NCBI GenBank assembly: GCA_051532055.1
Contig: JAOPTX010000010.1
Span: 126,175-167,610, forward strand
Reading direction: 5' to 3'
From: Fibrobacterales bacterium
GTDB taxonomy: Bacteria; Fibrobacterota; Fibrobacteria; Fibrobacterales; JAOPTW01
DNA length: 41,436 nt
Shown here: piece by piece, positions 3,628 through 38,661 of the stretch
Layout: every line of letters starts with the position of its first letter
How positions within the stretch are numbered: the first letter of the stretch is position 1
Position numbers and translations under genes: made by a program
Notes under the pieces: generated by a model
The model's database searches: none
Seen by the model: the letters and a program-made list of their open reading frames with translations, nothing else
What the model was told of the DNA's origin: nothing

Positions 3628-4461
3628 ATGAAATCCATCAGCATATACACTTACTTTGATTACCGCAAATATCTTGACGATTATTACAAGACTGAAAAAG
3701 CGGCAAAACCATATTTTTCTTATCGCTACTTTATGAAGAAGGCCGGGTTTAATTCTTCGGGCTCATATTCGAGAATCGTAGATGGTACCGTAAATATGAC
3801 TCAGCGTCTTATACCGAAATACGCAAAAGGATTAGCACTCAGTGAGAAAGAGACTGAATATCTCGAACTGATGGTGCTCTACGACCGAGCAAAAACTGTT
3901 GAAGCAAAGCAACAGATTTTTGATCAGATGGTTCCGTATCTGCCAAATAAGACAAAACGACTTAAAAATGATCAACGTGATTATTATTCTCACTGGTTTA
4001 ATGTTGTAATCCGTGAATCACTCTCCATTGTGAATATTGGTGATGATAATCATGGAGACATGGCATACTATTTAGAGCCACAGGTCCGTACTTCAGAGGT
4101 AAAAAGCGCTATTCGAACCTTAAGTAATCTCGGCCTTATTGCTAAAAATACCGATGGGTTTTGGAAGGCATGTGACTCGGGAGTAATGTCGGGTTCGGAA
4201 ATTGGCCCGCTTCACATACATAATTTTCAGTTTCAGATGATGGATCTCGCTAAAGAGTCTCTCGGTAGATTTGTACGAGGACAACGTTCAGTATCAACTA
4301 AAACATTTAGTGTATCAAGCAATGCATTTGAAGAGATAAAAAAGAAAATTGCAAAGGTACACAAAGAAATAGAAGAAATAATTATTGCGGACGAGAACGA
4401 AGGTAGGGTTTATGAAATGAACCTACAATTGTTTCCCGTTACCAAGGAGATGAAAAGATGA
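3628..4461 (+). CDS. TIGR02147-family (DUF4423-type) putative DNA-binding protein
   Basis: SIYTYFDYRKYLDDYY..FSYRYF..KAGFNS N-terminus, YYSHWFNVVIRE, and C-terminal VYEMNLQLFP. Paralog of 40383..41216. Confidence 0.88.
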   Translation: MKSISIYTYFDYRKYLDDYYKTEKAAKPYFSYRYFMKKAGFNSSGSYSRIVDGTVNMTQRLIPKYAKGLALSEKETEYLELMVLYDRAKTVEAKQQIFDQMVPYLPNKTKRLKNDQRDYYSHWFNVVIRESLSIVNIGDDNHGDMAYYLEPQVRTSEVKSAIRTLSNLGLIAKNTDGFWKACDSGVMSGSEIGPLHIHNFQFQMMDLAKESLGRFVRGQRSVSTKTFSVSSNAFEEIKKKIAKVHKEIEEIIIADENEGRVYEMNLQLFPVTKEMKR

Positions 4462-13471: not shown

Positions 13472-13499
13472 AAAAAAAAAGGTGCACAAAGTGCACCTA
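13472..13499 (-). terminator. Rho-independent terminator after OM protein copy 1
   Basis: Minus strand AGGTGCAC-TTT-GTGCACCT followed by a long T-run. Confidence 0.8.
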
Positions 13500-13527: not shown

Positions 13528-15531
13528 TTAAAACTTCCAACCTAGGTTAACTGAACCACTATAGATTGGGAAGCCTATATCGAGGTTCGGATAGTGTTGG
13601 TATCCGCCACCACCAGTAAGGATGATGTAAGTACCAATTGGGTTAATCATGAGTTTTGCTTGAAGTTCTGCTTGTGCTTTCCATGTGTCAAATTTGTTTT
13701 CGTAGCCAACAGGGCCATCAATGGCAAAGTCGTATGACGCAGGAACACTGAGTTGAAGGAATACTGGTGAAATAATGGCGCCAGCACTGCCTGGCATTCC
13801 AGGTACAACATCTTCGTCGATAAAGCGCGTGAGCACGTGTGCGAATACTTGAGCATATTTGAGGCTTTCGTCAACATCACCAATAGCCCAAGGTTTTGTA
13901 TAGAAGTATGTTCCTTGGATCTGGAAGTCAAATGGGCCAATTCCTTTGAGGTGTGTTCCAAAATAAATATCAGTATTCTGAATGCGTGCCCGAGCTGAGT
14001 CACGAGAGGCGATGTTTTGTGTCTTTAGTGAATCACTATAATACTTAGCAAGGTCATCATTAGCATCAATTATACTGTCACGAGTATCATCGTCAATTGC
14101 ATCGTCTTCGTCTCTTGGGTCGAAATCTTTAATACTGTCAAGGATATCTTGTTCGATTTTTGCTATTTCTATATCTTGTGCCCACCATTTTTCACTATCA
14201 AACATTACTCCACCATACCAGTGCCAGCCGCGAGTATACATTGCCTTTTTCTGGAATGGAAAACGAATAGGGCGATACAGGGCATAGTCAAATTTTACGC
14301 CAAACATAAATCGGTCACGTTCAAGGGTTGTAGATGGAATTACATCTTGAGCTCCAGTTAATTGAGTATAGCCGGCATCAGTTGCCCATACTTTTCTTAC
14401 AGGATATGTTACATCAGAAATATTCTGATTCATATAGAAAAGGTCAATTATCAATTTGTCAGGCCCAATGAATCGAGACAATTTTATTTTAGTATCAATT
14501 TGATTTGAGTAATCAGATTCCTCAGGGTACCACTCTATAAAGCCTTGGCGAGTTTGTTCTCTTAACGCTACTTCCCAGTACACATCAAACAAAGGGTATA
14601 GATTGAAATTTCTGTGGAGTACCACGCCTTTATCAAGAATGTAAAGTGATGTGAAATCATTCCATCCAATTTGCTGATGTACAGGGTTTTTATTTGCAAA
14701 AAGCATTGAACTAACTATCATACCATCATCAATATTAATTTCCCTCATATAAGCATCAACACTGATGAAAGGATGTCTGAGACGTACTCTGGCAAGTTTG
14801 TTATTGAAATCCGACCCACTATCATGTGTAGCAATTCTTTCTAATTGCGTTTGAGTTAGGTAATTACCTTGATATGGAGCATTTTTTACCCATATCGCTT
14901 CACTTGCACGAGATCGCGCATAATCAGGTTTGTCAAATTCACTCAACCCTTTAGTGTAGCGTTGTGTATAAGTGAAAAATAACTCTGGAAGCATATTGTC
15001 TGATGCATCGAGATGTTTATGTCGTGAAGGCCATGTCCATGGAGTTATAGCAATACCATCTTCCTGGTACATTTTACTGTAGCCGCGTTGTATCCAGCTA
15101 TAAAGGTTCTGGTCAACTTCGTTGAGATTGTCAAGCGATCCACCGTATTTATTCTTGAGTTTTTCAATAGCTCTCAAGTAATGAATTTTACCTTGTTCTC
15201 TTAAAGGGACCATTGAACCACGTACTTGAGTAAGGTAATTTGCATACCAAAGTTCCCAACCGGGTTCTTCAGGGTCCATGGCGATTGCTTTTTCATAATG
15301 ATATTCGGCATCGCTGTGACCAAGCCGCTTTTTTAGTTCAGCAATGACACAGTGCTGTTGACCAATGAGATTTTGTTCGTTGGCTAATTGCATTTCTACA
15401 AATGTTTCAGCGTCAGAAAGGTCAGCTCCAAGAAGCATACCTTCGGCTTCACCATAACATGAAAATGAGTTTGCAAATGGTGTTGTAGCAGAAGCCAGAA
15501 GAAAAGAAAGGGTAAGTAATAATTTTTTCAT
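13528..15531 (-). CDS. Unknown secreted protein, probable outer-membrane TPR + beta-barrel protein (copy 1)
   Basis: Sec signal peptide; TPR-like helix pair (AEYHYEKAIAMDPEEPGWELWYANYL); alternating beta-strand-rich C-terminal two thirds; ends YSGSVNLGWKF (BAM-type terminal Phe). Paralog of 18241..20202. Confidence 0.65.
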   Translation of the reverse strand: MKKLLLTLSFLLASATTPFANSFSCYGEAEGMLLGADLSDAETFVEMQLANEQNLIGQQHCVIAELKKRLGHSDAEYHYEKAIAMDPEEPGWELWYANYLTQVRGSMVPLREQGKIHYLRAIEKLKNKYGGSLDNLNEVDQNLYSWIQRGYSKMYQEDGIAITPWTWPSRHKHLDASDNMLPELFFTYTQRYTKGLSEFDKPDYARSRASEAIWVKNAPYQGNYLTQTQLERIATHDSGSDFNNKLARVRLRHPFISVDAYMREINIDDGMIVSSMLFANKNPVHQQIGWNDFTSLYILDKGVVLHRNFNLYPLFDVYWEVALREQTRQGFIEWYPEESDYSNQIDTKIKLSRFIGPDKLIIDLFYMNQNISDVTYPVRKVWATDAGYTQLTGAQDVIPSTTLERDRFMFGVKFDYALYRPIRFPFQKKAMYTRGWHWYGGVMFDSEKWWAQDIEIAKIEQDILDSIKDFDPRDEDDAIDDDTRDSIIDANDDLAKYYSDSLKTQNIASRDSARARIQNTDIYFGTHLKGIGPFDFQIQGTYFYTKPWAIGDVDESLKYAQVFAHVLTRFIDEDVVPGMPGSAGAIISPVFLQLSVPASYDFAIDGPVGYENKFDTWKAQAELQAKLMINPIGTYIILTGGGGYQHYPNLDIGFPIYSGSVNLGWKF

Positions 15532-15541
15532 AGTTTAGCTC

Positions 15542-16600
15542 CTAATTAGTAGTCCATTGTTTTTGCTCTGAAGCCCATTCAGACTTTGATCGAGTCATTT
15601 GGAAGTCTTCATCAATATCCTCATCTGAGTATAATATTCGGTCTATATAAAAGGATAGTGGATCATCAGCTGGAATGGCGCCTGATGCATTTGTCCACAT
15701 AAATCCCGTTGATACAAGTCTCGGCGAAGATAATGGGTGTGAAAAGAGTGTATCATTCTCAAATGTATCTTGGTTGAGCTCAGTCACATAAATAGTTTCT
15801 GGAAGTGGAAGTTCATAATACTGCCATTCATATGAAAGATCTATTACGTATTCGAGTGATGTTGGATTGAAATCACATGATGTTGTTAAGTTACCGCATA
15901 CTGCCACAGTGAGTTTGTGGTTGTAATCTTCTAATGTAATAGTGGTTGATTCATCTTTTTGGACAAACCAGAGGTCTTTAGGATTATCTTCTGTACGGTT
16001 ATGGAGGTCGGCATCTTTTCTAATTGATTTAGCCCAGAATGATATTTTTTTAGCTCCGGGACCAATTCGAATAAGGTCATCATAGCGGTGTCCCCAGTTT
16101 GTTCCTTGGAGCCAAGCAACGCCACCCCAGTTGTTGAGATCTCTTTCTTTTACATCAACGGTTTCATCATCATCATCATTAAAATTGGGGGCAATAGTAT
16201 ATTGCTTACATAGTGATTCGTCGGGTACATAAAGCTTCCCCTTTTTGACTTTTTCCTCATCTATATAGCCGCCATCTTTGGTCTCATAACTTGGGCATCC
16301 TTTAGATACACCAATATCACCAAATTGACCTGCTCCCATCCAGCCCTCATCAATAAACCAATGATTTAAGTAAAAAGGTACGGGTATATATTCGACTACA
16401 GTATCTTTGATGATCATTAATTCATCAGCAGAGTCCCTTTGGACTCCTCCCTTAGAGGAGCGTATGGCAACATCTGTTTCTATAGTTTCATATGGCAAGT
16501 CTACCTTGATGGTATCCAACTCAAGAGTTCCTGTGCTGGGTTCACTACAAGCTATAAAAGCTGTAGAAACTGCAAATAGCAATAATGCTAGCTTTTTCAT
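15542..16600 (-). CDS. Lipoprotein with CBM-like (galactose-binding-like) domain (copy 1)
   Basis: Likely start ATG 16600 (MKKLALLLFAVSTAFIAC lipobox). Trp-rich motifs FIDEGW, WGGVAW..TNWG, AKKISFWAK, LSYEWQYYEL and FYIDRILY are shared with 20202..21203. Confidence 0.65.
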   Translation of the reverse strand: MKKLALLLFAVSTAFIACSEPSTGTLELDTIKVDLPYETIETDVAIRSSKGGVQRDSADELMIIKDTVVEYIPVPFYLNHWFIDEGWMGAGQFGDIGVSKGCPSYETKDGGYIDEEKVKKGKLYVPDESLCKQYTIAPNFNDDDDETVDVKERDLNNWGGVAWLQGTNWGHRYDDLIRIGPGAKKISFWAKSIRKDADLHNRTEDNPKDLWFVQKDESTTITLEDYNHKLTVAVCGNLTTSCDFNPTSLEYVIDLSYEWQYYELPLPETIYVTELNQDTFENDTLFSHPLSSPRLVSTGFMWTNASGAIPADDPLSFYIDRILYSDEDIDEDFQMTRSKSEWASEQKQWTTN

Positions 16601-16858
16601 AATAGTTCCTTGTACTTCCGTTTGAAATTTGATTCGCATTATAAATAGATAAAAATGAGGTTGAATGCTACTAAAAAATGTCACTATTGAGAAAAGGATT
16701 CTGTTCTAACATGTTATAAATCAATGGCTTAGTTGTGGTTTTGCTGTAGACAATAATTACTATTAGTAAGAAAAAGAGGTTTTCATTATCACATATTTTA
16801 TCTAATTTATACTTAGAAAATATAAGATTGCATTGATGCAAAACAATTGGAGAAAGAG

Positions 16859-18145
16859 ATGAAATTAAATCTAAGTGTATTATTACTTTTATTGCCATTT
16901 GTCATGGTGGGTTGTTTTAGTGGACCAGATGACGACAATACAGCAGATAAAGACTCGAGTTCAGATGTAACAACATCTTCTGAGGCTGAAATGTCTTCTG
17001 ATGCGGACCCTGATGGTTCTTCTGAAGAACCAGTATCTTCAGATGCAGATATCGATGCCTCTTCAGAAGGGAATGATTCATCTCCATCTTCAGATGATGA
17101 TTCGTCAGATGAACCAGAATCATCTGTAGCTGATGTATCATCTTCAGATGAGACATCAAGTGATGCAGGAGATTCAAGTTCTTCAGACCCTGTATCTTCA
17201 TCTACTGGCGGGAATGTCTACAATACTGAGCTTTGTGGAGATAAATGTGAAGATGCCTTTGGTGCGTACCCTGGACATACTCTTTATTTTTATGAGGAAT
17301 TTACACGAGAGATTCCGTTTGCAGACAATATGATGACCAAAGATAAAGAAGGAATGGATTGGATCTGGACATGGGGTGATGGTAACTTCAGTGGTAATTT
17401 AACTCGCTTTGTTAAAGAAAACATCGAAGTCAAGACTGAAGGAGATGGGTCGTTAATTCTTCATCAAAAATGGGAATCTACAGCAGCTAGTATTTCAATT
17501 GCTCAGAATGGTGCTGAAATGCCTGCATTAGATATTACTGGCGGTGAGCTTAGAACACATGTTAATGATTTCTTTTATGGTATTTACGAAGTTAAAGTAC
17601 GGTTGAAAGAGATTCCAGATGAAAAAAATGTGTTTGGCACAATGTTTCTTTACAAAATACCACGTGGTGATGGTTGGAGAGAGATTGATCTTGAAATAGT
17701 TCCTAATAAAGCAGATGGAGGTATCATTACTAATGTTATTAATACTCAAAATATGGATGGTATTAATGATGATGTTGTTGAGTTTGATCCAATGTTTACT
17801 GCAGAAGAGCCTGGTGACTTCTCAAATGTACCAAACTGGGATGCAAACAATGGCGAATGGTATACTTATACAATCGAGTGGAAACCAAATAAAATTGTTT
17901 GGACTTGTAATGGTGAAGTGATTCGTACCTATACAGAAGAAACTGATAATGGTGCTGGACCGGTACAGGTTGCTGAAGAGCCATTAGCATTATTCTTTAA
18001 CTTTTGGACACCTGGTTGGGATGGTTCTGGTGGAGTAGGCGAAGATGAACTACCTGCTTGGATTGAGTTTGATTATGTCAAGTACTATGCTTGGGATGAT
18101 ATGGAAAATTATAGCCCTGAAGTACTTCAGGATATGACTAAGTAA
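16859..18145 (+). CDS. GH16 glycoside hydrolase lipoprotein with Ser/Asp-rich linker
   Basis: Likely start ATG 16859 (GGAG RBS); lipobox MVGC; GGELRT..YGIYEV, catalytic WREIDLE, WYTYTIEWKPNKIVW and FDYVKYY. Confidence 0.9.
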   Translation: MKLNLSVLLLLLPFVMVGCFSGPDDDNTADKDSSSDVTTSSEAEMSSDADPDGSSEEPVSSDADIDASSEGNDSSPSSDDDSSDEPESSVADVSSSDETSSDAGDSSSSDPVSSSTGGNVYNTELCGDKCEDAFGAYPGHTLYFYEEFTREIPFADNMMTKDKEGMDWIWTWGDGNFSGNLTRFVKENIEVKTEGDGSLILHQKWESTAASISIAQNGAEMPALDITGGELRTHVNDFFYGIYEVKVRLKEIPDEKNVFGTMFLYKIPRGDGWREIDLEIVPNKADGGIITNVINTQNMDGINDDVVEFDPMFTAEEPGDFSNVPNWDANNGEWYTYTIEWKPNKIVWTCNGEVIRTYTEETDNGAGPVQVAEEPLALFFNFWTPGWDGSGGVGEDELPAWIEFDYVKYYAWDDMENYSPEVLQDMTK

Positions 18146-18166
18146 TTTTACTTTTGTAAAATATAT

Positions 18167-18197
18167 AAGGGCTCCCTACATAGGGAGCCCTTTTTTT
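18167..18197 (+). terminator. Rho-independent terminator
   Basis: AAGGGCTCCCTA-CA-TAGGGAGCCCTT followed by a T-run, between convergent genes. Confidence 0.88.
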
Positions 18198-18240
18198 GTG
18201 CAGTTATGTGGGTTTAGTTATGTCGTCAAATGTAATAACG

Positions 18241-20202
18241 TTAAAACTTCCATCCCATATTCACACTCCCACTATACAGTGCAAATCCAGTATCAAGGTG
18301 ATTATAATATTGGTACCCACCTCCAACAGTGAATATAATATAGGTTCCGAGGGGATTAATAAGAAACTTCATCTGAACTTCACCTTGTGCTTTAAAGGTG
18401 TCGAATTTATTTTCATATCCCTGTGGGCCATTTATTGCAAAATCATAAGAGAGTGGAAACCCGAGTTGTAAAAATACCGGAGAGATTAATGAGTACTGAG
18501 GCATTCCAGGGACGACATCTTCATCTATAATTCGATATAATACATGTCCAAAAATTTGGTTGTACTGAAGAGCGTCTTTGTTAGACCAGAGTGCGTAATC
18601 CTCTACATATGGTTTTGTGTAAAAGAAAGTGTATTGCAGTTGAAGGTCAAAATTGCCAATCCCTTTGAGGTTGGTACCAACATAAACATCGGTATTTTGA
18701 ACAATGGACCTAGACGAATCAAGACTATTAGTAATGACCGTCTGAATACTATCTCTATAGTTCTTGCTTTCTTCGAGTGAGTCAAGTGTCTGTTGTAGAG
18801 CCATATCACCATTATTAATGAGTTGTTTTACCTCTTTGGTTGCTCTCTGAAGTATGCCATCATCAACGGCCCACCAGCGCTCTGAATCAAACATAATGCC
18901 GGTATACCAGTGCCAACCTCGTGTATATTGAGCTTTCTTTTTAAAAGGGAACCGTATGGGGGTGTAAAGGGCATAATCTACTTTAATACCTGCCATGTAT
19001 CGGTCGCGCTCAAGAGTAACCCCTGGGGTGATGTGCTTTTGAGCATCTGGTTGCCAGTTTACAGAGGTGGGGTAGGTGTAGTCTTGAATGTTTTGATTCA
19101 TATAAAAGAGTTCCAGTTGCAGCTTGTTGGGGCCAATAAAACGCGAAAGCTTCATCTTGGTATCAAACTGCATGGTGTACCCTTTTGACTCAGGAAACCA
19201 TTCGATAAAGCCTTTGTTCATCTGAGATGTTACTCCGGCCTCCCAGTAGAGGTCAAAGAGTGGGTAGAAATCAAAACTTCTGTGAAGAAGAAGTCCATAA
19301 TCTTGGCTGGTGATAGTGTTGAAATCGTGCCAGTTATTAAGCTTGTCAGAAGGTGCTGTACTGTTGAGTAACATTGCACTCGAAACCATGCCATTGGTGA
19401 TGGAAACCTGTTTAATATATGCATCAATACTGATGATAGGGTGACGGAGCCGGGTCCGTATCAAGCGGGTGTGAATATCAGAGCCGTTGTTGTGTGTTGC
19501 AATACGTTCAAGGTCTTGTTGAGTGAGCGTGTCTCTCCAGAGTGCGTCTCTGACCCAGAGAGCTTCACTTGCACGGCTCCGTGCATAATCTGGTTTGTCA
19601 AATTCACTGAGACCATGAGTAAAGCGGTCGATATATGTTATAAAAAGGTTGGGGAGCATGTAGTCTGATACATCAAGGTGCTTATTGCGTATAGACCATG
19701 TCCACGGAGTGAGAGCAATACCATCCTCTTGATACATTTTACTGTACCCTCTTTGGATCCAGCTAAAAAGGTTTGCGTCTACTTCAGATAGTGAATCAAG
19801 TGAGCCACCATACTTATTTCTTAATTTTGTAATTGCATTTAGATAGTGACACTTACCTTTTTCTCGCAGGGGGACCATTGGTCCGCGAACTTGCGTTATA
19901 TAGTTGGCATACCACAACTCCCAACCTGGTTCAGTAGGGTCAAGGGCTATTGCTTTTTCGTAGTACTCAGATGCACGTGAGTCTCCGAGGCGTTTCATTA
20001 ATTCGGCAACAACGCAGACCTGTTGGCCTACCAGTTGGTCTTCAATTTTTAATTGAGCTTCTACAAACACTTCAGCATCTATAAGGTCGGCACTTTTAAA
20101 AATTCCTTCGGCCTCACCATAGCAAGAGAATGAATTTGCAAATATTGTTTGAGTTGTCATTGTAAGGGTAAAGAGGGTGAGTAATAGAGTAACGTTTTTC
20201 AT
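18241..20202 (-). CDS. Unknown secreted protein, probable outer-membrane TPR + beta-barrel protein (copy 2)
   Basis: Shares long identical blocks with 13528..15531 (FANSFSCYGEAEG, EPGWELWYANY, GLSEFDKPDYARSRASEA, YTRGWHWY, GYENKFDT); ends GWKF. TAATG overlap with the upstream lipoprotein gene. Confidence 0.65.
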   Translation of the reverse strand: MKNVTLLLTLFTLTMTTQTIFANSFSCYGEAEGIFKSADLIDAEVFVEAQLKIEDQLVGQQVCVVAELMKRLGDSRASEYYEKAIALDPTEPGWELWYANYITQVRGPMVPLREKGKCHYLNAITKLRNKYGGSLDSLSEVDANLFSWIQRGYSKMYQEDGIALTPWTWSIRNKHLDVSDYMLPNLFITYIDRFTHGLSEFDKPDYARSRASEALWVRDALWRDTLTQQDLERIATHNNGSDIHTRLIRTRLRHPIISIDAYIKQVSITNGMVSSAMLLNSTAPSDKLNNWHDFNTITSQDYGLLLHRSFDFYPLFDLYWEAGVTSQMNKGFIEWFPESKGYTMQFDTKMKLSRFIGPNKLQLELFYMNQNIQDYTYPTSVNWQPDAQKHITPGVTLERDRYMAGIKVDYALYTPIRFPFKKKAQYTRGWHWYTGIMFDSERWWAVDDGILQRATKEVKQLINNGDMALQQTLDSLEESKNYRDSIQTVITNSLDSSRSIVQNTDVYVGTNLKGIGNFDLQLQYTFFYTKPYVEDYALWSNKDALQYNQIFGHVLYRIIDEDVVPGMPQYSLISPVFLQLGFPLSYDFAINGPQGYENKFDTFKAQGEVQMKFLINPLGTYIIFTVGGGYQYYNHLDTGFALYSGSVNMGWKF

Positions 20203-21203
20203 TAGATGTCCTCTGGAGTTATGTCGTTAAATGTTGCGTTGTCTCCAATCATTTCTTCGTCAGTATACATAAGGCTATCGAGATTAAATTCTAGCCGATA
20301 TCCGGGCACTACAATTTGAGTTACAGATGTTGCTGTAAGCCAACCGAAGGCATTATACTGGGTTTGACTGGTTGAATCAGTAGCATAACCGGTGAGTTGC
20401 CTATCACAATCTAAGTCGAATTCACTACAGTGATAACCGGTTTGCTCACGGAGGGCCATTTCATATTTATGCCATTTAGTATCAAGGGCAACTTGCTGTG
20501 AGTTAAACCATGCACTTTGCAGTGGGTAACTGGTGAATCCAGAATAGGTTGTTTCATTGGTCTCATTGCCAACAACAAGATTCAAATGTCTAAGCCAGTC
20601 ACATTCGCCGACCTCTATAAATTGAGGGTTTTCTGTACAAGCTTTAAGTGTGTCAATGTTAGTAGTGCCTCTCAACCAAAAGGTTACTTTTTTGGCGGTA
20701 TTTTTAATTTTAAAATTTACGGGACGTTCAGCTCCTTGTGCATCAGTACCCCAGTTAGCATCATTGAGCCAGTACATGCCCACATATAATGTATCACTTA
20801 TTGAATGGTAGTTAATGGTATTACAGAGTTTACTGTCTGGGGTATACGTGCTTGATTTATCTGTATGAATGGGCTCTGAATTTTGACAGGTACCTTTGGA
20901 AAGGTGCATTTCAAACTCAGGATTATCTTTGCTTAATGTGTTGTTGGCATAGCGAGGGTTCAACCAGCCTTCTGGTATAAAGTAATGATCTGCCATAAAA
21001 GGTGGGGTTATGACGGGTATTTTTTCTTGATTGCTATTGTAAGTACTGTCTTCTGGAATGGTTCCATCAGGAGCTGCGATTCTTTTGTCGATGGATGTGA
21101 GCTGATACGGTCCTCCTCCAGGCTCTGTAAAGAGCGGAGCTTCATAACATGATGAAAGGAAGAGAACAATTGCAGTTGTAGCAAAAGCTTTTAACATATT
21201 CAT
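20202..21203 (-). CDS. Lipoprotein with CBM-like domain (copy 2)
   Basis: Lipobox LSSC; FIPEGW, YVGMYW..ANWG, AKKVTFWLRG, LDTKWHKYEM and FNLDSLMY. Paralog of 15542..16600. Confidence 0.65.
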   Translation of the reverse strand: MNMLKAFATTAIVLFLSSCYEAPLFTEPGGGPYQLTSIDKRIAAPDGTIPEDSTYNSNQEKIPVITPPFMADHYFIPEGWLNPRYANNTLSKDNPEFEMHLSKGTCQNSEPIHTDKSSTYTPDSKLCNTINYHSISDTLYVGMYWLNDANWGTDAQGAERPVNFKIKNTAKKVTFWLRGTTNIDTLKACTENPQFIEVGECDWLRHLNLVVGNETNETTYSGFTSYPLQSAWFNSQQVALDTKWHKYEMALREQTGYHCSEFDLDCDRQLTGYATDSTSQTQYNAFGWLTATSVTQIVVPGYRLEFNLDSLMYTDEEMIGDNATFNDITPEDI

Positions 21204-21325
21204 TGTGTACCCTTAGTGTATTGTGTGCGTGTGTGTATGTTGTGTATGGCCAAATAAATAAGTAATTCAAAAAGAAAAGGCTAGTAAAATATGGTTTACC
21301 CTGTGCTCTTTGAGGCCTTATTCCT

Positions 21326-21347
21326 GCTTGTAAACAGCTTGTAAACA
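21326..21347. promoter_or_regulatory. Tandem direct repeat GCTTGTAAACA x2, candidate operator in the divergent promoter region
   Basis: Perfect 11-bp direct repeat (one helical turn) near the centre of the 266-bp divergent intergenic region. Confidence 0.45.
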
Positions 21348-21385
21348 GATTGTGCAAGAAGGGGTGTTCTACAAGAAAGTGACGT

Positions 21386-21414
21386 TTGCGAATTGAAGGG
21401 TCTGAACGTATCTT
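21386..21414 (+). promoter_or_regulatory. Sigma-70-type promoter of GH16 copy 2
   Basis: TTGCGA-N17-TATCTT, ending 55 bp upstream of ATG 21470. Confidence 0.5.
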
Positions 21415-21469
21415 TAACACCACACACAATGCACACATATTTATACATATATAATCGAGGGGATTAAGA

Positions 21470-22723
21470 ATGAAATTAAGACAGTGGTTTATTACATCGG
21501 TATTGATGTTGGTAGGATCGCAATTGATGTTTGTAGGATGTCAAAGTGCAGGTAATACAACTCCAGAAACAAGTGACTCAAGTTTTGAAGAATCTTCAGA
21601 CGCAATGGTTTCATCTGATGCTATACCTGATGGTAGCGATATTCTTTCATCTGATGCAGTTGTAGAATCTTCAGAAGAAGGTGATGAATCTTCAGATGCG
21701 AACGATGTTTCGTCAGAAGCAGTTGTAGAATCTTCGGACGAACGTGATGAATCTTCAGATGTGAGTGATGTATCATCAGAAGCAGTTATAGAATCATCGG
21801 AAGAAAATGGAGAATCATCTGATGGCGCTGATAGTTCTGAAGACACTGTTTCTGAATGTGTACCCCCTGAAGTTGATGGGGGCGCATACGATACTTATGA
21901 TGGGTTTACTCTAGTTATTGCAGATGAGTTTGATTCTTTTGATGACTGTATGTGGACTAAAACATATGGAAGTTGGACAGATAATGACGTGTTGTTTATG
22001 CCGGAAAATGTTTCAGTAGAAGACGGAAAGCTTCTTCTTAATATGACCCGTGATAACCCTAAAGGTGGCATTGCGTGGGATCAAAGAACAGTACGTGACC
22101 CAAGAGGAAAAATTGTGGGCTCAAAAGATTTCTCTTCAGGAGAAGTGCGCTCACATAGAGAGTATAAATATGGTCGATTTGTATCTTCTTTTAGGTCTGA
22201 AGCGCCGAATCACATTTCTACAATGTTCTTATATAATATTCCAAGTGATAGTATTTGGTTAGAAATTGATATTGAAGTTATGACTAATCATCCTGGTAAA
22301 CCAACATCTAATCTTCTGATAGATTGGGATGGGGCTCAAAATTATAATGATCTTATTAAAGATGGTAATGATGATTTGATTCAAGCAGCGAACGGTGTCG
22401 AAGATGCTGCCCACAATGAATTTCATGAATATATGATTGAGTGGACTCCAGATAGAGTTGCTTGGTTTATTGATGGTGTTCAGTTTCGTGAAATTACTGA
22501 TAAAACACTTATACCAGATGAAGGTATTCATATTATGTTTAACTTCTGGTTACTCACAGCATTATCTGGTGCAACTCAAGATGGCTATCTAGAAAATGGT
22601 GAGTACGCATCAACTGAGTATGAATACTTCCGTTATTATAAGTGGGATGGTGAGGATGATTATGAAGAGCCGGCTTGGTGTGGCGATAGAACATGGAATG
22701 ATGCACAAGGTAAGTGCGAATAA
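21470..22723 (+). CDS. GH16 glycoside hydrolase lipoprotein with repetitive Ser/Glu/Asp linker
   Basis: Lipobox FVGC; DEFD, SGEVRS..YKYGRF, catalytic WLEIDIE, FHEYMIEWTPDRVAWFIDG and YEYFRYY. Confidence 0.92.
   Translation: MKLRQWFITSVLMLVGSQLMFVGCQSAGNTTPETSDSSFEESSDAMVSSDAIPDGSDILSSDAVVESSEEGDESSDANDVSSEAVVESSDERDESSDVSDVSSEAVIESSEENGESSDGADSSEDTVSECVPPEVDGGAYDTYDGFTLVIADEFDSFDDCMWTKTYGSWTDNDVLFMPENVSVEDGKLLLNMTRDNPKGGIAWDQRTVRDPRGKIVGSKDFSSGEVRSHREYKYGRFVSSFRSEAPNHISTMFLYNIPSDSIWLEIDIEVMTNHPGKPTSNLLIDWDGAQNYNDLIKDGNDDLIQAANGVEDAAHNEFHEYMIEWTPDRVAWFIDGVQFREITDKTLIPDEGIHIMFNFWLLTALSGATQDGYLENGEYASTEYEYFRYYKWDGEDDYEEPAWCGDRTWNDAQGKCE
21647..21835 (+). repeat. Three imperfect 63-bp (21-aa) tandem repeats in the GH16 linker
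   Basis: SSDAVVESSEEGDESSDANDV / SSEAVVESSDERDESSDVSDV / SSEAVIESSEENGESSDGADS; also visible in the DNA (gcagttgtagaatcttc...gatgaatcttcagatg). Confidence 0.85.
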
Positions 22724-22749
22724 AAATATTTAGTTGTTTGAAGATTTTT

Positions 22750-22780
22750 AAGCCTCTCGGGATTCCGAGGGGCTTTTTTT
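22750..22780 (+). terminator. Rho-independent terminator
   Basis: AAGCCTCTCGG-GATT-CCGAGGGGCTT followed by a T-run. Confidence 0.85.
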
Positions 22781-22958
22781 GCTTTTTACTTATTAATTAC
22801 ACTGAGTTCAATATTCAAATGATGGCATAAGTTGGTTTATTTAGTGTGAGTATAGGTTTAATGAAGTTCATAATGTAAAAAACACATAAAGTCTATTGTT
22901 AGGGCACAATTCTTAATTTATATTTATCTCACACATATACATTTTTATCGGGGTAGAG

Positions 22959-24197
22959 ATGACACACATACGTTTGCTGTTACTAACATCAATTACATCA
23001 TTTTTTTTAGTGGGGTGCCTCGGGGCGGATCCTGCTGATTCGTCTTCTGTTGGGGGGTCAAGTGAAGAAGTGCTCTCATCTGAGGAATCTTCTGAAAGTT
23101 CCGAAGGAATTACCATGGATAGTTCTGGGGAAGAGTCATCAGAAGGTGGGAGCTCTGAATCTAAGCCTTCCGAGGTTAGTAGTTCAAGTGTCGTTGTTGA
23201 ATCAAGTAGTAAAGAATTGTCTAGTGAGGGAGCCTCTTCAATAGTGATGTCGAGTGAGGAAAATTCGTCCGGGACAGTATCGACTGATGAAAGCTCTTCC
23301 GACGTAATGTCAAGTGAAGCTGTTGTAGATACAGATATGCCGATGTATGATGACTTTACGTTTGTATTTGAAGATGAATTCGATACATTTGATGACTCAA
23401 TGTGGGAAAAGTCTGATGGTGGCTGGATGGATAATGAATCTAATTTTGAAGTAGAAAATACAGATGTTAATGATGGTAAAATGGTTCTTACAATGAGACG
23501 AGATAACCCATCGGAAAAAGTTTCGTGGTCGCAACGAAATACGAGGAATCCAGATGGGAAAGAAGTAATTGAGCGAGTTTTTTCTTCAGGAGAATTACGG
23601 TCACATAGGCAATATTTGTATGGACGATTTGTAGCGCCGATTAAAGTATCAGATAATGCTGAGTATTACCTTTCTACAATGTTTCTCTACCGAGTGCCAA
23701 GTGATGACCGGTGGTTGGAAATAGATATTGAGCTCATGAGTGGGAATAAGGATCGTCCGACGACAAATATGCTTATCGATTGGGATGGAGCTGAGAATTG
23801 GGCCCACTTAGTCTATGGGGGAGATGCTTCTGACTTTAATGGGGCAAAAGGTTTTGAAGAGTTTGTTAAAATTGAAGATAAAGTTTTTGTCCATACAGAA
23901 ACTCATGAGTATGCAATTGAGTGGACACCAGATAGGATAGCATGGTATATAGATGATGTGCTGATAAGAGAGTTTACAAATAAAGATCAGATTCCTAATG
24001 AGCCAATGCATATAATGTTTAACTTCTGGATTTTTGGACCACTGACAGGTAATTATCCTGCTGACTATTTGGATGGGGGAATTGAGCCAACTACTGAGTA
24101 TGAGTATTTCCGTTATTATAAATGGAATGGTGAAGATGAGTATGAGCATCCAGCATGGTGTGGTAATAAAACGTGGAATGGTACTCGTTGTGAATAA
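22959..24197 (+). CDS. GH16 glycoside hydrolase lipoprotein (close paralog of 21470..22723)
   Basis: Lipobox LVGC; Ser-rich linker; SGELRS..YLYGRF, WLEIDIE and HEYAIEWTPDRIAWYID. Shares the C-terminal PAWCG..TWN...CE with copy 2. Confidence 0.92.
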   Translation: MTHIRLLLLTSITSFFLVGCLGADPADSSSVGGSSEEVLSSEESSESSEGITMDSSGEESSEGGSSESKPSEVSSSSVVVESSSKELSSEGASSIVMSSEENSSGTVSTDESSSDVMSSEAVVDTDMPMYDDFTFVFEDEFDTFDDSMWEKSDGGWMDNESNFEVENTDVNDGKMVLTMRRDNPSEKVSWSQRNTRNPDGKEVIERVFSSGELRSHRQYLYGRFVAPIKVSDNAEYYLSTMFLYRVPSDDRWLEIDIELMSGNKDRPTTNMLIDWDGAENWAHLVYGGDASDFNGAKGFEEFVKIEDKVFVHTETHEYAIEWTPDRIAWYIDDVLIREFTNKDQIPNEPMHIMFNFWIFGPLTGNYPADYLDGGIEPTTEYEYFRYYKWNGEDEYEHPAWCGNKTWNGTRCE

Positions 24198-24422: not shown

Positions 24423-26720
24423 TTAATCTTTGATACATCTTACATATTGCTGTAAAAACTCGTCTAAAGAATTTGATGAAATTGATATTTTAGATAGTTG
24501 TACTATATATATACTATGCTGGGAACCCATGGGGGCGTTGTCAGAAGTGGTCCACCAATATTCGTTTGTGTTGATACCCTCCCAGGCTAAGCGAGTTATA
24601 AAATATCCCCCTAATTTTACAGAAAATCCAGTGGTATTAGTTTCATGTAGGATGTACTGTTGCCCGCTGGGTCCTGCAAAATCAATTAATTGGGTCCACT
24701 CGTTTTTGCTCGGTAAATGCCAGTTGTTTGGGCAGATACCTTGAATGTTACTTGGGGTGTCATTGGAACCTCTTACACCAGATACGACAGGATGTGTATA
24801 GGGGGTGTACTTTTGGCCGGTGATTGCTGTAGGCCAATAATACATTCGGCCATGTATATTACAGTTGCTTGAGCGGCTTTCATAACAAAAAGAACTAATG
24901 GTGTCGTAGATAGAGTAATTTAAGTTCTCCGCCATCCAAATTTGTTCACCAATTCTCACCCATTTATAAATTTGACTATCTCGTGAGTCGGGAAATTCAC
25001 CATTAATGAGTTCAGTATATTCAGCGGTAACCATAGTATTCGTATAACAACTATACGTAATAGACTGGCCAGTAGCACCAGGGATAGTACAGTCTTTATC
25101 ATCAAATTCCCAGTGAGAAAATTCATACCCAAATGGGGCGTCAGGTGCAGTGATTTGATGAGGGGCTTGGTACTTCACCGAGGCAGTTTCACTAAAAAAG
25201 TTGGACGGTGTAGAGTTAAAGGTTACGGTAAAGAGCTTTCGAGTATATTGGGCGATCACTTGGCCTTCACCTGATTTTTTGAAACCAATAGTAGAGCCCG
25301 AGACATCTGCATTGGATTCTTCTACGAGAGTTGAGAAGGTGAATCCCCAAGCGGCTGTTGTGGTAATGCTCTTTGGGGCGTCATCCTCTTTAATGGTAAC
25401 AGAAGAAGGAATCTCGTCGGATACATCCGCGCAGTTAATATCGATGTTATCAGCTTGACAGGTAATAGATATAGTCGTTTGTGGGATAGTAATTTCGTTA
25501 AATGTTACTGTTGCAGTGAGGACAGGTTTTACAAAGGCGCCGTCCTGTATTCCTGTAATAATGTGCTCACTGAGTTCTAGATCATCGGAGGTGTAATCAG
25601 GGTCACAATATTCATCGATATCCGTTTCAATAATGACGTTGTCGCTATCCATAGTATAAGAGAGTGTTTCATTACTCACTGTTCCACAGGTACCTTTGGC
25701 AGAAACAACAATAGTGTAGGCCTTAGGCGTAAATATTGCGTCTATGACCTCATTCTTTGTACAGCCTATTTTGGTGTTGAGTGCATTGGTTTCATATTTA
25801 AGAGAACACCCTGGTCCACTATCCCACTCTTTAAATTCATAGCCATCAGGGGCAATGGGTTCAATAGAGAGTTTGATTTCTGTTTCTTCATTAATTGAAA
25901 TAGATTCAGTTTCATTGGAGCCCTTGTTGACCGTAATAGTATAGGTGTTTACTTCTTCAGATGAACTTAAATAACTCGACGACGACTTTAAATCAAGCTG
26001 AGGATTGGAGCTTGAAGAGTTAGTGTCTTCAACAAAAGAGCTTTCAGGGGTGACTTCTTCTGATGAATAGGGTTCAGTCGGTTGGTCTTGCGAACTTCTT
26101 CCAGATTCGTCAAGCTCTTCATTTTCAACCTCTTCTTCGCTAGAAAAAAGTTCAGAGGATTGGTGTTGTTGATTGGGCTCTTCAGCGAGTAAGGTGCCTA
26201 AGGTATTTAATCGATTTAATTGGTTTAGGTCTGACCCGAAAATTTCCTCGAGTTCCTCTTGGTTGTCATTATCTTCGAGGAAATCTATGAGGTTCGAAAT
26301 TCGCTCCTTCTTCATTGCTTTTTCGTGTTTTTCTAAAAATGCAATGTTTTCAGTAAAGCTGTGGCTATTGGACTGGGACTTTTTAATTCTATTCTTTGAA
26401 ATTGTTCGAGTTATTGTAGTGGTAGGGAGTCCATAAGACTTACAGATTATTTCGACAGTACTTGGTTTTTCTTCAGAGTTAGGGATGTCGAAGGTTATCT
26501 CAATTGAGGAATCATCACTTTCAAAGTCGTCTTTGGAGGTGAATATGTGACTTGTGGTTTCGTTTATTGAAACTTCTACAGTATGGATTGGTAGGTCGGT
26601 ATCATTCTCGATATCAACTTGGTACTCCTGAAAGTCGGGAGTTGGGCTGTAATCCATGCAGCTTTGAGTAAAAAAGAGAGCATAACAGACAATAAATAGC
26701 GTCATTAATGGACGATTCAT
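24423..26720 (-). CDS. FISUMP (Fibrobacter succinogenes major paralogous domain) lipoprotein with InlB-B/Flg_new-like repeats
   Basis: Likely start ATG 26720 (AGGAG RBS; lipobox TQSC); Ser-rich linker; APDGYEFKEW and APFGYEFSHW repeats; C-terminal DSRDSQIYKWVRIGEQIWMAENLNY..GICPNNWHLPS..EW..WWT..VRCIKD. Confidence 0.88.
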   Translation of the reverse strand: MNRPLMTLFIVCYALFFTQSCMDYSPTPDFQEYQVDIENDTDLPIHTVEVSINETTSHIFTSKDDFESDDSSIEITFDIPNSEEKPSTVEIICKSYGLPTTTITRTISKNRIKKSQSNSHSFTENIAFLEKHEKAMKKERISNLIDFLEDNDNQEELEEIFGSDLNQLNRLNTLGTLLAEEPNQQHQSSELFSSEEEVENEELDESGRSSQDQPTEPYSSEEVTPESSFVEDTNSSSSNPQLDLKSSSSYLSSSEEVNTYTITVNKGSNETESISINEETEIKLSIEPIAPDGYEFKEWDSGPGCSLKYETNALNTKIGCTKNEVIDAIFTPKAYTIVVSAKGTCGTVSNETLSYTMDSDNVIIETDIDEYCDPDYTSDDLELSEHIITGIQDGAFVKPVLTATVTFNEITIPQTTISITCQADNIDINCADVSDEIPSSVTIKEDDAPKSITTTAAWGFTFSTLVEESNADVSGSTIGFKKSGEGQVIAQYTRKLFTVTFNSTPSNFFSETASVKYQAPHQITAPDAPFGYEFSHWEFDDKDCTIPGATGQSITYSCYTNTMVTAEYTELINGEFPDSRDSQIYKWVRIGEQIWMAENLNYSIYDTISSFCYESRSSNCNIHGRMYYWPTAITGQKYTPYTHPVVSGVRGSNDTPSNIQGICPNNWHLPSKNEWTQLIDFAGPSGQQYILHETNTTGFSVKLGGYFITRLAWEGINTNEYWWTTSDNAPMGSQHSIYIVQLSKISISSNSLDEFLQQYVRCIKD

Positions 26721-26967
26721 AGTGACTTCTCCTGAATAGTTGTGGCATTTAATGTGTGGCCTATCATAAATGAAAAAAAATGAGTTGTAAAAGAGGCCAG
26801 ATGCCATATAAATTATAGGGCAAATAATTTAGAAATCCAGGAAAGAAAATGAGTTGAAATAGTGTTAATATTTGTTCACAAAAGGGCAATACAACAGGTG
26901 TTTCTGTATTGTAAACAGTGTAGCCATATAAAAGTCACATTCTTACCCCTAGTAACATATATAGCGT

Positions 26968-27025: not shown

Positions 27026-29761
27026 ATGCGTCCAATATCAATCCTCGCAGTGGTTGGTCTGGTAAGTATTTTCGCAGGTTGCGGAAATCCTCCACCACCA
27101 TCAAAAGAAGAATCAAAAATTCAGCTTCGTGACTACGGATCTGAGATCATTGTAGACTACGATAAGTATGGGACATACCTCAATGCTGGTACCCCAGAAT
27201 TCTCCTATCGAGCAGATGATATTCGCGGTCTTAAAAAAGCGGTTGGTGAAGGCATTTACCCTAACATGTATGGTGTAGAGAAGAATCCTCTGCATAAAGA
27301 AATCAAAGGCCGTAAGGACTTCAAACGTGATCATTGGGATCTTGAAAATGAGGCGTCATATGAGCTTCGTTTCTTTAGATGGCCACGTGCCTGGGAGGCC
27401 CTCGGTGTTCGTCAGCTTTTTATTGCAAAAGCTCTTGCTGAAGGCGGCTATGTAGAACAAGCTATTAAAGCTTACTACGCATGTCTTTTGACATTTCCTC
27501 GTGGATATGGATACCTTGCTGATGGTAAAACCACTTGGTGGATTGCTCCTGCTGCAATAAATAACATTAAAATTCTCATTGGAAAAAATCCAGAGCTCGG
27601 CCTGCGTTATGAAGGTAATCCATATGCTATTGAAAAAGCTGATGGTAAACTCTATGTGAATCCAGGTAAAATTGCTGGTGACATTGTTGGTAAAGCAAGT
27701 GGACTTAATTTGGGTGTTACGGAAGTTCAAATTGATAACGAGCTTTTTAAACAACCACTTAAACTTACCAACTACGGTAAATCAATTCTTGATATTGATT
27801 ATTCTAAGTTTGGAACGTTTGAGAAAGTGGGAACCAATGATTATAACTACACTCTAGAAGACTCTGCAGGGCTCGCAGCTGCAGTAGGTGAAGGTGTTTG
27901 GCCGAACGTAAGTGATGTAAAAGAGAACCCTCTTTATAAAGAACTCGACGAAGCGGGGCTTCTGAAAGGGCATGCTTGGGAGCATACCAGTGCAGGTGTT
28001 CCAATGAGCCAGTACTTTAAATGGGCGACAAATAACGACCAAGCTCCTGGTGTTAAAATGTTCTACATGGCTGAAGGTCTTCGTAAAGCTGGTACCGCTC
28101 AAAAAGATACCCGTCTTATTGAGCAAGCAGTTAAAGCATTCCACTCAGTTCTTCTTCACTTCCCTGAAACTCCAGTGTACGCTCCTGATGGATCATACCT
28201 TTGGTATGCGGGTAAAGCAAGTCTTGATATTATTCACGTAATGCTCAGAGACTTCCCACAAATTGGCGCAGAGCATAGACCACTTCTTAAAAAACATAGA
28301 TGGCCAGTACTCAGAATTACAAATGAGTATGACCTTACTATTGAGAATGATATAAAAATCATTGATCCAGGTAAGATTGTGAAAGCACCAAAAGTTAAAC
28401 TTAAGCCTGTTGATGTTTCAAAACTTAAAGTTGTTGAGCAACGGTGTGGTGGTAAAAAATCTGGTGATTATAACTGTAAAGCGAAAGTACACCTTAAAAA
28501 ATATTCAAACGGTCACTGGCAGCTGTTTGTTGACGGTAAAGCGACTACCGTTAAAGCAATTACCTATGACCCAACTATGATTGGTGAATCAGCATACAAT
28601 GAAAGTATCGAAAACTGGCAGTTCCAGGATGAAGATAAAAATGGTAAAATTGATGCGCCATACGATGCATGGGTAGATAAAAATAGAAATAACAAACAAG
28701 ATGCTGATGAGCCATCTGTTGGTGACTTTCAACTCTTGAAAGACATGGGTGCAAACTCAATTCGTTTCTTCTACAAGCCATACAAAGAAGTAGTGAACGG
28801 AAATACTACGTGGCATTACATCAGTGAAGAGAAAGCAAAAACATTTTGTAAAATTGATCGCCCTGATGATCATAAATGTCATCCGTCACTCAACAAGCCA
28901 CTTCTGAGAGACCTTTGGAAAACCTATGGTATTAAAGCTATGATTGGTGATTTCCTTGGTGCATATACTGTAGGTTCTGGTGCAGACTGGTTTACAGGAA
29001 CTGACTACACTAATGAAGAACAGAAAACAAAAATGAGAAATCTTGTAAGAGATCTTGTTTCTGACAATAAAGATGAAGACTACATGCAGTTTTGGATTCT
29101 TGGTAATGAGAATAACATGAACAATGGTCATGGTGGTATCAATGCAACGAAAACTCTAGCAGGTGAGCAGCCTGAAGAGTTCGGTACATTCCTTACTGAG
29201 ATTGCAGAAATGATCCATGAGATTGATCCAGATCATCCAGTAGTTATCGGTAACCTTGAAACACAACTTATTGAGTATTATGAGCAGTATGCACATGGTA
29301 TTGATATTGTCGGTGTGAATTCATATCGTGGTGAGATGGGTTTTGGACTTCTTTTTGATCAGGTACGTGATGTGTTTGACCGCCCAGTAATGATCACTGA
29401 GTACGGTTCAGACATGTTGAACTTTGCACAAGTGGGATCTATTTGGGACGAAAAATCTCAAACTCGTTACCATAAAGGTACATGGAGTGATATCTACTAT
29501 AACCGTGCTGGTCATATTGGCTCAGGAAACTCTATTGGTGGTATTGCATTTGAGTGGCTTGATGAATGGTGGAAATCAAATCAAGGTGCTGCAGACATGC
29601 ATGACCAAGTACAAGATTCTCCAATGGCATTCCAAGATGGCTGGTCATCTGAAGAATGGCTAGGGCTTATGGGTCAAGGTGATGGAAGAAGTTCTCCATT
29701 TTTACGAGACGCACGCAAAGCATACTATTGGTACATGAAGACTTGGAATAAAATCCAATAA
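27026..29761 (+). CDS. Clan GH-A (GH2-like TIM barrel) glycoside hydrolase lipoprotein with duplicated TPR-containing N-terminal domain
   Basis: Lipobox FAGC; DFQLLKDMGANSIR, WILGNEN (acid/base), IHEIDPDHPV, GVNSYRG, MITEYG (nucleophile) and FEWLDEWWK; two ~200-aa N-terminal repeats. Confidence 0.8.
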   Translation: MRPISILAVVGLVSIFAGCGNPPPPSKEESKIQLRDYGSEIIVDYDKYGTYLNAGTPEFSYRADDIRGLKKAVGEGIYPNMYGVEKNPLHKEIKGRKDFKRDHWDLENEASYELRFFRWPRAWEALGVRQLFIAKALAEGGYVEQAIKAYYACLLTFPRGYGYLADGKTTWWIAPAAINNIKILIGKNPELGLRYEGNPYAIEKADGKLYVNPGKIAGDIVGKASGLNLGVTEVQIDNELFKQPLKLTNYGKSILDIDYSKFGTFEKVGTNDYNYTLEDSAGLAAAVGEGVWPNVSDVKENPLYKELDEAGLLKGHAWEHTSAGVPMSQYFKWATNNDQAPGVKMFYMAEGLRKAGTAQKDTRLIEQAVKAFHSVLLHFPETPVYAPDGSYLWYAGKASLDIIHVMLRDFPQIGAEHRPLLKKHRWPVLRITNEYDLTIENDIKIIDPGKIVKAPKVKLKPVDVSKLKVVEQRCGGKKSGDYNCKAKVHLKKYSNGHWQLFVDGKATTVKAITYDPTMIGESAYNESIENWQFQDEDKNGKIDAPYDAWVDKNRNNKQDADEPSVGDFQLLKDMGANSIRFFYKPYKEVVNGNTTWHYISEEKAKTFCKIDRPDDHKCHPSLNKPLLRDLWKTYGIKAMIGDFLGAYTVGSGADWFTGTDYTNEEQKTKMRNLVRDLVSDNKDEDYMQFWILGNENNMNNGHGGINATKTLAGEQPEEFGTFLTEIAEMIHEIDPDHPVVIGNLETQLIEYYEQYAHGIDIVGVNSYRGEMGFGLLFDQVRDVFDRPVMITEYGSDMLNFAQVGSIWDEKSQTRYHKGTWSDIYYNRAGHIGSGNSIGGIAFEWLDEWWKSNQGAADMHDQVQDSPMAFQDGWSSEEWLGLMGQGDGRSSPFLRDARKAYYWYMKTWNKIQ

Positions 29762-34467: not shown

Positions 34468-34518
34468 GCTATCTCTCTCAGTATACGTATCATTCAAAAC
34501 TTATGCTTGAGTGATTTA

Positions 34519-35967: not shown

Positions 35968-35979
35968 TGGGGCCTCGGG

Positions 35980-37074: not shown

Positions 37075-37097
37075 GAAACTCCTTAAGGAACGGGTGG

Positions 37098-38522: not shown

Positions 38523-38661
38523 GGGCGTTCCACTTTTGTAATGAGTGCTCTTGTTTATGCTGTAAAGATACCTAAAAAGGCCGTTTTTTCTTTGATGGGG
38601 GTCAACAAAATTACAACTTTATAACAGATTGAAAACGTGAAAAAGTAACATAAATAGGGGG

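Follow-up and report, generated by a model that had tools for sequence, protein, structure and literature searches.

Two consecutive gene cassettes in a 41,436-nucleotide stretch of a Fibrobacterales genome (contig JAOPTX010000010.1, positions 126,175 to 167,610; hereafter the window) encode OM1 and OM2, which represent an undescribed family of outer-membrane pores. Each pore gene is paired with a gene for a lipoprotein resembling a carbohydrate-binding module (CBM), LP1 or LP2, and lies opposite a gene for a lipoprotein of glycoside hydrolase (GH) family 16. The predicted barrel is built like an export pore, yet by sequence it stands outside that class; likewise, the module is a polysaccharide utilisation locus (PUL) in its logic, yet falls outside the SusC/D class. 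Our best reading, to which we give a little less than an even chance, is that the barrels are passive, TonB-independent pores that would let beta-1,3(-1,4)-glucan oligosaccharides into the cell. No description of the barrel family or of the module was found in searches of open-access text.

A preliminary description, made from the sequence, had reported the same three-part divergent cassette twice in succession. All seven open reading frames (ORFs) were confirmed at their coordinates, and strands and junctions matched the sequence. In cassette 1, OM1 (13528–15531, minus strand, 667 residues with a signal peptide) and LP1 (15542–16600, minus, 352 residues) lie opposite GH16a (16859–18145, plus). 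In cassette 2, OM2 (18241–20202, minus, 653 residues) and LP2 (20202–21203, minus, 333 residues) face GH16b (21470–22723, plus), which is followed by the 53% identical GH16c (22959–24197, plus). The tight coupling of lipoprotein and barrel genes could be read in the sequence as a 10-bp gap (15532–15541) in cassette 1 and a TAATG overlap at 20202 in cassette 2. The ORF caller started LP1 at GTG 16684; the most plausible start is ATG 16600, with the lipobox FIAC, and GH16a starts at ATG 16859. The tandem pair stands as two adjacent copies, but the genome has another cassette, its third, on contig C37; this one is arranged divergently in the same way, and a TonB-receptor gene comes next. In all three cassettes, the barrel gene is translationally coupled to the lipoprotein gene.

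The barrel, its lipoprotein partner and the associated enzymes

OM1 and OM2 share 61% identity across 653 residues and match no family in Pfam or NCBIfam, TonB_dep_Rec and Plug of Pfam included. Twenty members of the barrel family gave only weak tetratricopeptide repeat (TPR) matches or matches to appended domains, and none to DUF560, BCSC_C or NfrA_C. A profile search of the PDB with the barrel returned TPR matches only, while a search of representative proteins identified 171 proteins at E ≤ 1e-3. The structure of OM2, modelled from a 98-row alignment (pLDDT 90.2, pTM 0.88), agrees with the TPR and beta-barrel identity first assigned to these proteins, and the fold of OM1 is taken from this paralogue. 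Seven TPR-like helices within the first 136 mature residues precede 16 long strands, most of which are amphipathic, with alternating hydrophobic and polar residues. Of the seven connections after even-numbered strands, five are 2–4 residues in length and the remaining two have 16 and 13; those after odd-numbered strands are mostly long, including 43 residues after strand 1, modelled as a two-helix loop, and 52 after strand 9. From the model, we infer the ordinary outer-membrane topology with a periplasmic N-terminal domain.

Foldseek searches with the OM2 model placed BcsC and PelBC on top. With VIA-align, PgaA was the best match (Z 19.7, root-mean-square deviation 3.3, 264 aligned), and PelB scored Z 18.2 (4.2, 338 aligned) with its TPR part included. 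Other matches were CymA (Z 16.4; 5.1, 280 aligned), BcsC (Z 15.7), the two-partner secretion barrels FhaC (Z 16.0) and CdiB (Z 14.9), chitoporin (Z 15.6), OprB (Z 15.1) and LamB (Z 12.5). Sequence identity to PgaA, PelB, CymA, FhaC and BcsC is 5–10%. No Slam protein was among the best 50 VIA-align rows, an absence that we do not count as evidence. In the ESM-Atlas, the neighbours of the barrel were NfrA and BcsC at 0.93–0.94, with a low recognition score.

According to an excerpt of PMC12141448, the export barrels of PelB, BcsC and PgaA have 16 strands and are accompanied by TPRs in the periplasm. The predicted architecture of OM2, an N-terminal periplasmic TPR domain and a C-terminal 16-stranded barrel, is shared with PgaA, PelB(C), BcsC and NfrA, and the PelB system also has a partner lipoprotein and a glycoside hydrolase (PelC and PelA in the same excerpt). 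The family studied here differs from these export pores in its 6–10% identity to them, its much shorter TPR part, its CBM-like sandwich as partner and its loci, in which no synthase was found, an unlinked or unrecognised one being possible. The closest functional analogy is TonB-independent oligosaccharide entry through CymA, chitoporin, OprB and LamB, to which sequence identity is again 6–10%. The solved sugar-specific porins are not known to contain a TPR domain or to be encoded together with a CBM lipoprotein. With the SusC/SusD PULs, the module shares the combination of endoglycanase (here three GH16 enzymes and a GH158-like one) with an outer-membrane transporter and a glycan-binding lipoprotein, the latter two as predicted functions, as well as paralogous, probably substrate-diversified cassettes. 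SusC, in contrast, has 22 strands and a plug (PMC13543919, in excerpt) where OM2 is modelled with 16 strands, no plug and a helical N-terminal domain; SusD-family lipoproteins are helical, whereas the partner here is a beta-sandwich and probably periplasmic. Canonical SusC/D had been thought absent, and indeed no match to SusD (PF07980) was found in this 94% complete genome (5.17 Mb, 39.6% GC) and no plug in OM1 or OM2.

LP1 and LP2 are 25% identical (E 2e-15) and have no Pfam match. A 15-row lipoprotein profile matched CBM4-2 at E 2.8e-6 and CBM30 weakly. The LP2 model (pLDDT 69) is a beta-sandwich with middling matches to CIA30, CBM11, the extra domain of ExoP and CBM30 (Z 7.8–8.5), in a list consisting mostly of carbohydrate-binding sandwiches. 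Profile and model agree with the CBM-like lipoprotein of the preliminary description as a CBM4/11/30-like beta-sandwich that is predicted to bind glycan. For a second profile, 119 sequences homologous to a Desulfobacterales neighbour were collected by sequence and trimmed with the first profile; it picked up the Fibrobacterota lipoproteins of this lineage and of genome G251 at E 6e-10 to 6e-4. The domain is also appended to a GH158-like enzyme on contig C44 of the same genome and to GH17-like enzymes at loci L049 and L059; being appended to enzymes is the usual situation of CBMs.

The lipoprotein had been proposed as a binding lid. A contig-truncated reading frame (L049/P0088) that runs from a signal peptide through GH17-like and CBM-like parts into a TPR-barrel suggests that a periplasmic location is more likely than that of a SusD-like lid on the outer face. 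Should the N-terminal part remain in the periplasm, where it is in PelB and BcsC, both the binding module and the GH17 hydrolase would act on the inner face; another reading of this fusion is that of an autotransporter-like passenger. Prediction of an OM2–LP2 complex scored 0.00 and was used neither for nor against binding.

All three GH16 lipoproteins scored above the Pfam GH16 cut-off. Their E-x-D-x-E motifs (EIDLE in GH16a, EIDIE in GH16b and GH16c) lack the beta-bulge residue, as in GH16 enzymes of the lichenase type. The best solved relatives of GH16b in the PDB are 1,3-1,4-beta-glucanases (E 6e-21); the score was below the NCBIfam BglS cut-off. In each protein, a lipobox is followed by a stretch of 30–40% Ser, so the reported Ser-rich stalk is present, but it is not diagnostic: 93 of 460 lipobox-like ORFs in the genome carry one, and we rejected it as a hallmark of the module. 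Because only 17 of 3928 ORFs match the GH16 profile, yet a GH16 gene sits divergently beside all three barrel cassettes, this pairing is not due to chance.

A gene overlooked in the preliminary description (27026–29761, plus) encodes a 911-residue lipoprotein with two repeats of ~200 residues and a GH158-like TIM barrel. Residues 657–808 match the GH158 structure 9oro (E 1e-9), which covers part of the catalytic domain only and includes both apparent catalytic Glu motifs; its ESM-Atlas look-alikes are Omnitrophota/Elusimicrobiota GH2_C clusters. Genes of this type cluster with the barrel in other Fibrobacterota, and the protein probably belongs to the module. The genome encodes a second full protein of this type (G000:C9:54466-57285) and a repeat-only one without a catalytic domain (G000:C14:45416-46927), and the repeat matched no known family. 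A small TPR-like protein encoded at other barrel loci was rejected as a homologue of the repeats (HHalign probability 1.2%), and only a motif of ~45 residues is shared via intermediates (E ~1e-5 both ways), which is a lead. The GH149 gene of this genome is divergent from an oligopeptide-type ATP-binding cassette (ABC) operon (both within G000:C25:47228-56628), read from N-termini only, which likely encodes an inner-membrane importer of glucan oligosaccharides.

Distribution, neighbourhoods and cassette evolution

The barrel was detected in four of 296 Fibrobacterota genomes (G000, G238, G251 and G072) from three families, and the CBM-like domain and the 27026-type protein occurred in the same four. 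None of the three was found in the 151 genomes of the largest family, which we infer to be the rumen Fibrobacter family. The module is rare and is not a general route for glycan uptake in Fibrobacterota. GH149 was present in nine of the 296 genomes, namely in three of the four with the barrel and six of the 292 others. Gene order is GH16-LP-OM-GH16-GH158-like-GH149 in G251, GH16-LP-OM-GH16-GH158-like-GH149-like-permease at loci L012 and L079, and LP-OM-GH26-like-LP-GH158-like in G072. At L079, the operon runs on into a gene for an MFS_2 sugar permease, and L012 and L013 have a homologous gene at the corresponding position; the GH149 identity was tested on the L012 protein and the MFS_2 call was made on the L079 protein. 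In Acidobacteriota, the barrel was found in one of 401 sampled genomes, the seed genome only, and the CBM-like domain in three of 100, so the domain occurs without a detected barrel.

We compared 74 barrel loci, of which five were Fibrobacterota genome regions, ten were from named genomes (Desulfobacterales, Acidobacteriota and Entotheonella; L023, which duplicates L012, was left out) and 59 were from metagenomes. The use of an 8-row alignment biases 11 + 59 loci to one subfamily, and Myxococcota-type neighbourhoods were not purposely sampled; FastTree and identity clustering served only to pick query subsets. Many loci are near-duplicates, and all partner profiles except the CBM one were seeded from the same loci. 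A CBM-like domain was encoded at 42 of the 74 loci. GH16 was found at seven, GH17-like enzymes at eight and GH158-like enzymes at four, with GH17 in L015 and GH158 in L069 (GH2 by Pfam) being doubtful. Other recurrent partners were an (alpha/alpha)6-like enzyme (15 loci), a small TPR-like protein (14), a multi-transmembrane protein (14) and a caspase (10). Where at least 1.5 kb was available on each side (n = 29), 22 loci had the CBM-like domain and all 29 had at least one of these partners. The constant partner is thus the CBM-like domain, with 42 loci, and not GH16, with seven, as first supposed.

The absence of a glycan synthase from the window was borne out by a Pfam scan. Three Pfam scans of neighbouring genes (49 and 53 neighbours, then 90 out of 166 candidates with E ≤ 1e-7) did not reveal a polysaccharide synthase either, although they did reveal proteases, kinases, sigma factors and mobile-element genes. 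No CelA scored above the cut-off in five barrel genomes. The best synthase-like protein of this genome is a CelA-like glycosyltransferase of family 2 (GT2) with ~500 residues (G000:C92:31971-33476, L109); it was rejected as a dedicated synthase, being present in 255 of 296 genomes, a tally that includes genome G253. Separately, an unclassified (alpha/alpha)6-like enzyme fused to a CBM-like domain was observed at L025:6579-8471, L033, L037, L044 and L114. It had weak profile matches to cellobiose 2-epimerase and GH76 and no solved relative in a single-protein search, and is possibly a new family of carbohydrate-active enzymes. Fusions of a caspase with the CBM-like domain, with apparent signal peptides, lie directly 3' of the barrel gene at L024:11599-13086, L028, L029, L031, L032, L035, L036 and L038, often with clostripain, CHAT and extracytoplasmic function (ECF) sigma factor genes; a glycan-triggered protease system is possible at these loci.

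The three barrels of the genome share ~60% mutual identity and their lipoproteins 23–28%. When compared with a genome of the same genus, cassettes 2 and 3 are 85–97% identical throughout. GH16c is absent from this place in that genome. Cassette 1 has the same position in both genomes with flanks that are 96–99% identical, and its barrel is 72%, its lipoprotein 28% and its GH16 36% identical to the counterpart. Since the cassette keeps its place and flanks at such low identities of lipoprotein and GH16, these two appear to have been replaced together, as would be expected of a specificity module, and the swapped pairs probably serve different glucans. An orphan lipoprotein in this same-genus genome, G238 (contig C11, L105:1210-2328), is 46% identical to LP1 of the window, versus 28% for the lipoprotein at the syntenic position, and may be a trace of module shuffling.

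Direction of transport and competing explanations

If the barrels are inward pores, the GH16 endoglucanases, each tethered by a lipid anchor and a flexible Ser-rich stalk, would cut beta-1,3-1,4- or beta-1,3-glucan at or near the surface, their presumed location. The oligosaccharides would then diffuse across the outer membrane, the 16-strand barrel offering them a loop-gated passage that needs no energy, with the two-helix loop after strand 1 as the likely gate and no TonB plug domain seen. On the periplasmic side, the CBM-like lipoprotein beside the short TPR domain may capture the product, bias the flux inward and set specificity. The GH158-like lipoprotein would trim the product, and an inner-membrane importer of the major facilitator superfamily (MFS) or ABC type would complete catabolism together with the GH149 phosphorylase. 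We read the passage as inward because of the catabolic linkage and the missing synthase, which are not evidence of transport. A channel, binding and hydrolase unit analogous to but not homologous with SusC/D, as originally envisaged, is retained in its PUL-like logic and beta-glucan enzyme linkage, but not in the placement of the lid or the constancy of GH16.

Several observations weigh against inward glucan passage. The closest folds and the ESM-Atlas neighbours are export pores and not importers, and the conserved barrel positions are rich in Arg, Asp and Glu, with no obvious aromatic track. The four barrel genomes represent three lineages and are not independent. Genome G072, which is 90% complete, has no GH149 match, and its locus carries a GH26-like gene in place of GH16. 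Linkage to beta-glucan enzymes is conserved, but many loci outside Fibrobacterota show no recognisable glucanase: GH16/GH17/GH158-type matches occur at 17 of the 74 loci and 13 of the 29 with good flanks, two of them doubtful. Frequent at those loci are kinases, ECF sigma factors, clostripain, proteases of the CHAT type and caspase–CBM fusions, neighbours that fit signalling better than feeding. Finally, eight TonB-receptor matches exist in the genome, one being directly after the cassette on contig C37, and uptake could be TonB-dependent instead.

Among the other explanations, the one we consider most credible, if unlikely, is a Slam-like translocon in which the short-TPR barrel would carry the adjacent lipoprotein, and perhaps the GH16 and GH158 lipoproteins too, to the surface. 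The CBM-like domain would then be cargo or a recognition tag, and sugars would enter by TonB receptors. This possibility was omitted from the preliminary description, although part of the evidence fits. Slam, the type XI secretion pore, also combines a short periplasmic TPR domain with a barrel, and about half of its genes lie beside a lipoprotein gene (PMC5449769, in excerpt), as the barrel gene does in all three cassettes here. One domain common to partners as different as a caspase, GH17 and the (alpha/alpha)6-like enzyme would suit a tag, the FhaC and CdiB matches are in line with protein secretion, and the GH17–CBM–TPR-barrel fusion could be an autotransporter-like passenger form. Slam has 14 strands, however, versus the 16 modelled here, its neighbour is TbpB-like and not CBM-like, and DUF560 was not matched by any of the 20 barrel-family members. 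In addition, the CBM-like domain occurs in two of 99 further Acidobacteriota genomes without a barrel match (three candidates scored per genome), and at seven of the 29 well-flanked loci the vicinity lacks a CBM-like domain.

Two further explanations seem to us about equally improbable, and more so than a translocon. One of them, an export-pore fold, had been offered earlier as an alternative only: a pore like BcsC, PgaA or PelB would export self-made beta-glucan, with the glucanases editing it and the synthase elsewhere or unrecognised. The fold is closest to just these pores; PelB has as working partners a lipoprotein in the periplasm and a hydrolase bound to its TPRs (PMC12141448, same excerpt), transglycosylases occur among GH17 enzymes (PMC11005184, in excerpt), and the (alpha/alpha)6-like partner has no assigned activity. 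Yet no glycosyltransferase was found among the neighbours scanned, CelA stayed below the cut-off, and the distribution of the best GT2 does not follow that of the system. The N-terminal domain would be short for bridging to an inner-membrane synthase because it has ~136 residues versus ~800 before the resolved part in PelB; NfrA and BcsC clusters measure 900–1350 residues. The presence of three paralogous cassettes that have diverged and carry swapped enzyme pairs also looks like substrate diversification. The other is beta-glucan sensing, in which algal or fungal fragments would pass the pore in small quantities and reach CBM-bearing proteins in the periplasm, feeding being secondary, and CBM–caspase fusions, TPR proteins and the multi-pass membrane protein would trigger a proteolytic or ECF response. 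It draws on the caspase genes, mostly fused to the CBM-like domain, on the conserved multi-transmembrane and small TPR-like genes, and on clostripain, CHAT, kinase and ECF genes nearby. None of these partners, however, lies in the window or at other Fibrobacterota loci, where operons carry catabolic genes (GH149, MFS), and many caspase-type loci are near-duplicates. Sensing shares its inward direction with glucan feeding and may hold for other lineages only.

A broader version of the inward pore is doubtful, standing below the simple entry pore and above the translocon in our estimate. It holds that a TPR and 16-strand export-type pore was turned round for TonB-free beta-1,3-glucan import, with a periplasmic CBM lipoprotein at the TPR face as the sink. 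This would make it a third class of outer-membrane glycan uptake, mobile among Fibrobacterota, Acidobacteriota, Myxococcota, Desulfobacterota and others, that would serve catabolism in some hosts and CBM–caspase sensing of algal or fungal beta-glucan in others.

Other features of the window and wider significance

The divergent intergenic regions of cassettes 1 (16601–16858) and 2 (21204–21469) had been described as shared control regions. The layout is consistent with this, but promoter-like matches are not in excess (35 versus 42.9 ± 7.9 in shuffles). Terminator-like matches across the window, 11 versus 9.1 ± 3.1 in shuffles, show no excess either. Such hairpins lie 3' of OM1 (13480–13498, minus, consensus match only) and at 18167–18192, where GH16a and OM2 converge and both strands match (consensus scan). 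GH16c is probably a separate transcription unit because it has terminator-like hairpins on both sides, at 22750 and 24231. Repeats in the window reflect paralogy and the stalks, and a plasmid match search returned none. The closest named homologues are from a Fibrobacterales metagenome-assembled genome.

RNA and DNA contigs were drawn from two marine runs, metagenome and metatranscriptome, of a single sample, possibly the source; the RNA contigs carry no information on level or strand. RNA contigs cover GH16a (16886–18101) and pieces of OM1 and of 27026–29761, and one bridges the junction of LP1 and OM1, which is not proof of a single transcript. Cassette 2 (18161–23368) had no RNA contig cover in one small run, which is no evidence of silence. 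One DNA contig has a 1-base deletion in an intergenic A-run at 13470.

The GH16 genes are separated from the GH158-like gene by one for a FISUMP (Fib_succ_major) lipoprotein with InlB-like repeats (24423–26807, minus), which is probably not part of the module. Further along, 33226–39300 (minus) encodes a HydF GTPase, two radical-SAM proteins that we take to be HydE/HydG-like, an aspartase/fumarase-family lyase and a Rex-like regulator; this is an [FeFe]-hydrogenase maturation cluster, which suggests anaerobic fermentation. Two DUF4423 regulator-like genes (3628–5684 and 39505–41216) each have an unannotated gene downstream, a pairing that recurs across the genome.

Among the glycans of the sea and of fungi, beta-1,3-glucans rank as major ones. 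To our knowledge, outer-membrane uptake apart from SusC/D and TonB systems is poorly mapped, and the module described here adds an unnamed barrel family and an unnamed CBM-like domain to a beta-glucan system with a small parts list. The mechanism of cellodextrin transport in Fibrobacter succinogenes is called unknown in an excerpt of PMC6851124. With the barrel in four of 296 Fibrobacterota and one of 401 sampled Acidobacteriota genomes, and none found in the largest Fibrobacterota family, the module does not account for cellulose uptake in Fibrobacter. If the protein is a translocon, lipoproteins would have a further Slam-like route, new in kind; if it is an importer with export-pore architecture, this fold can run in either direction.

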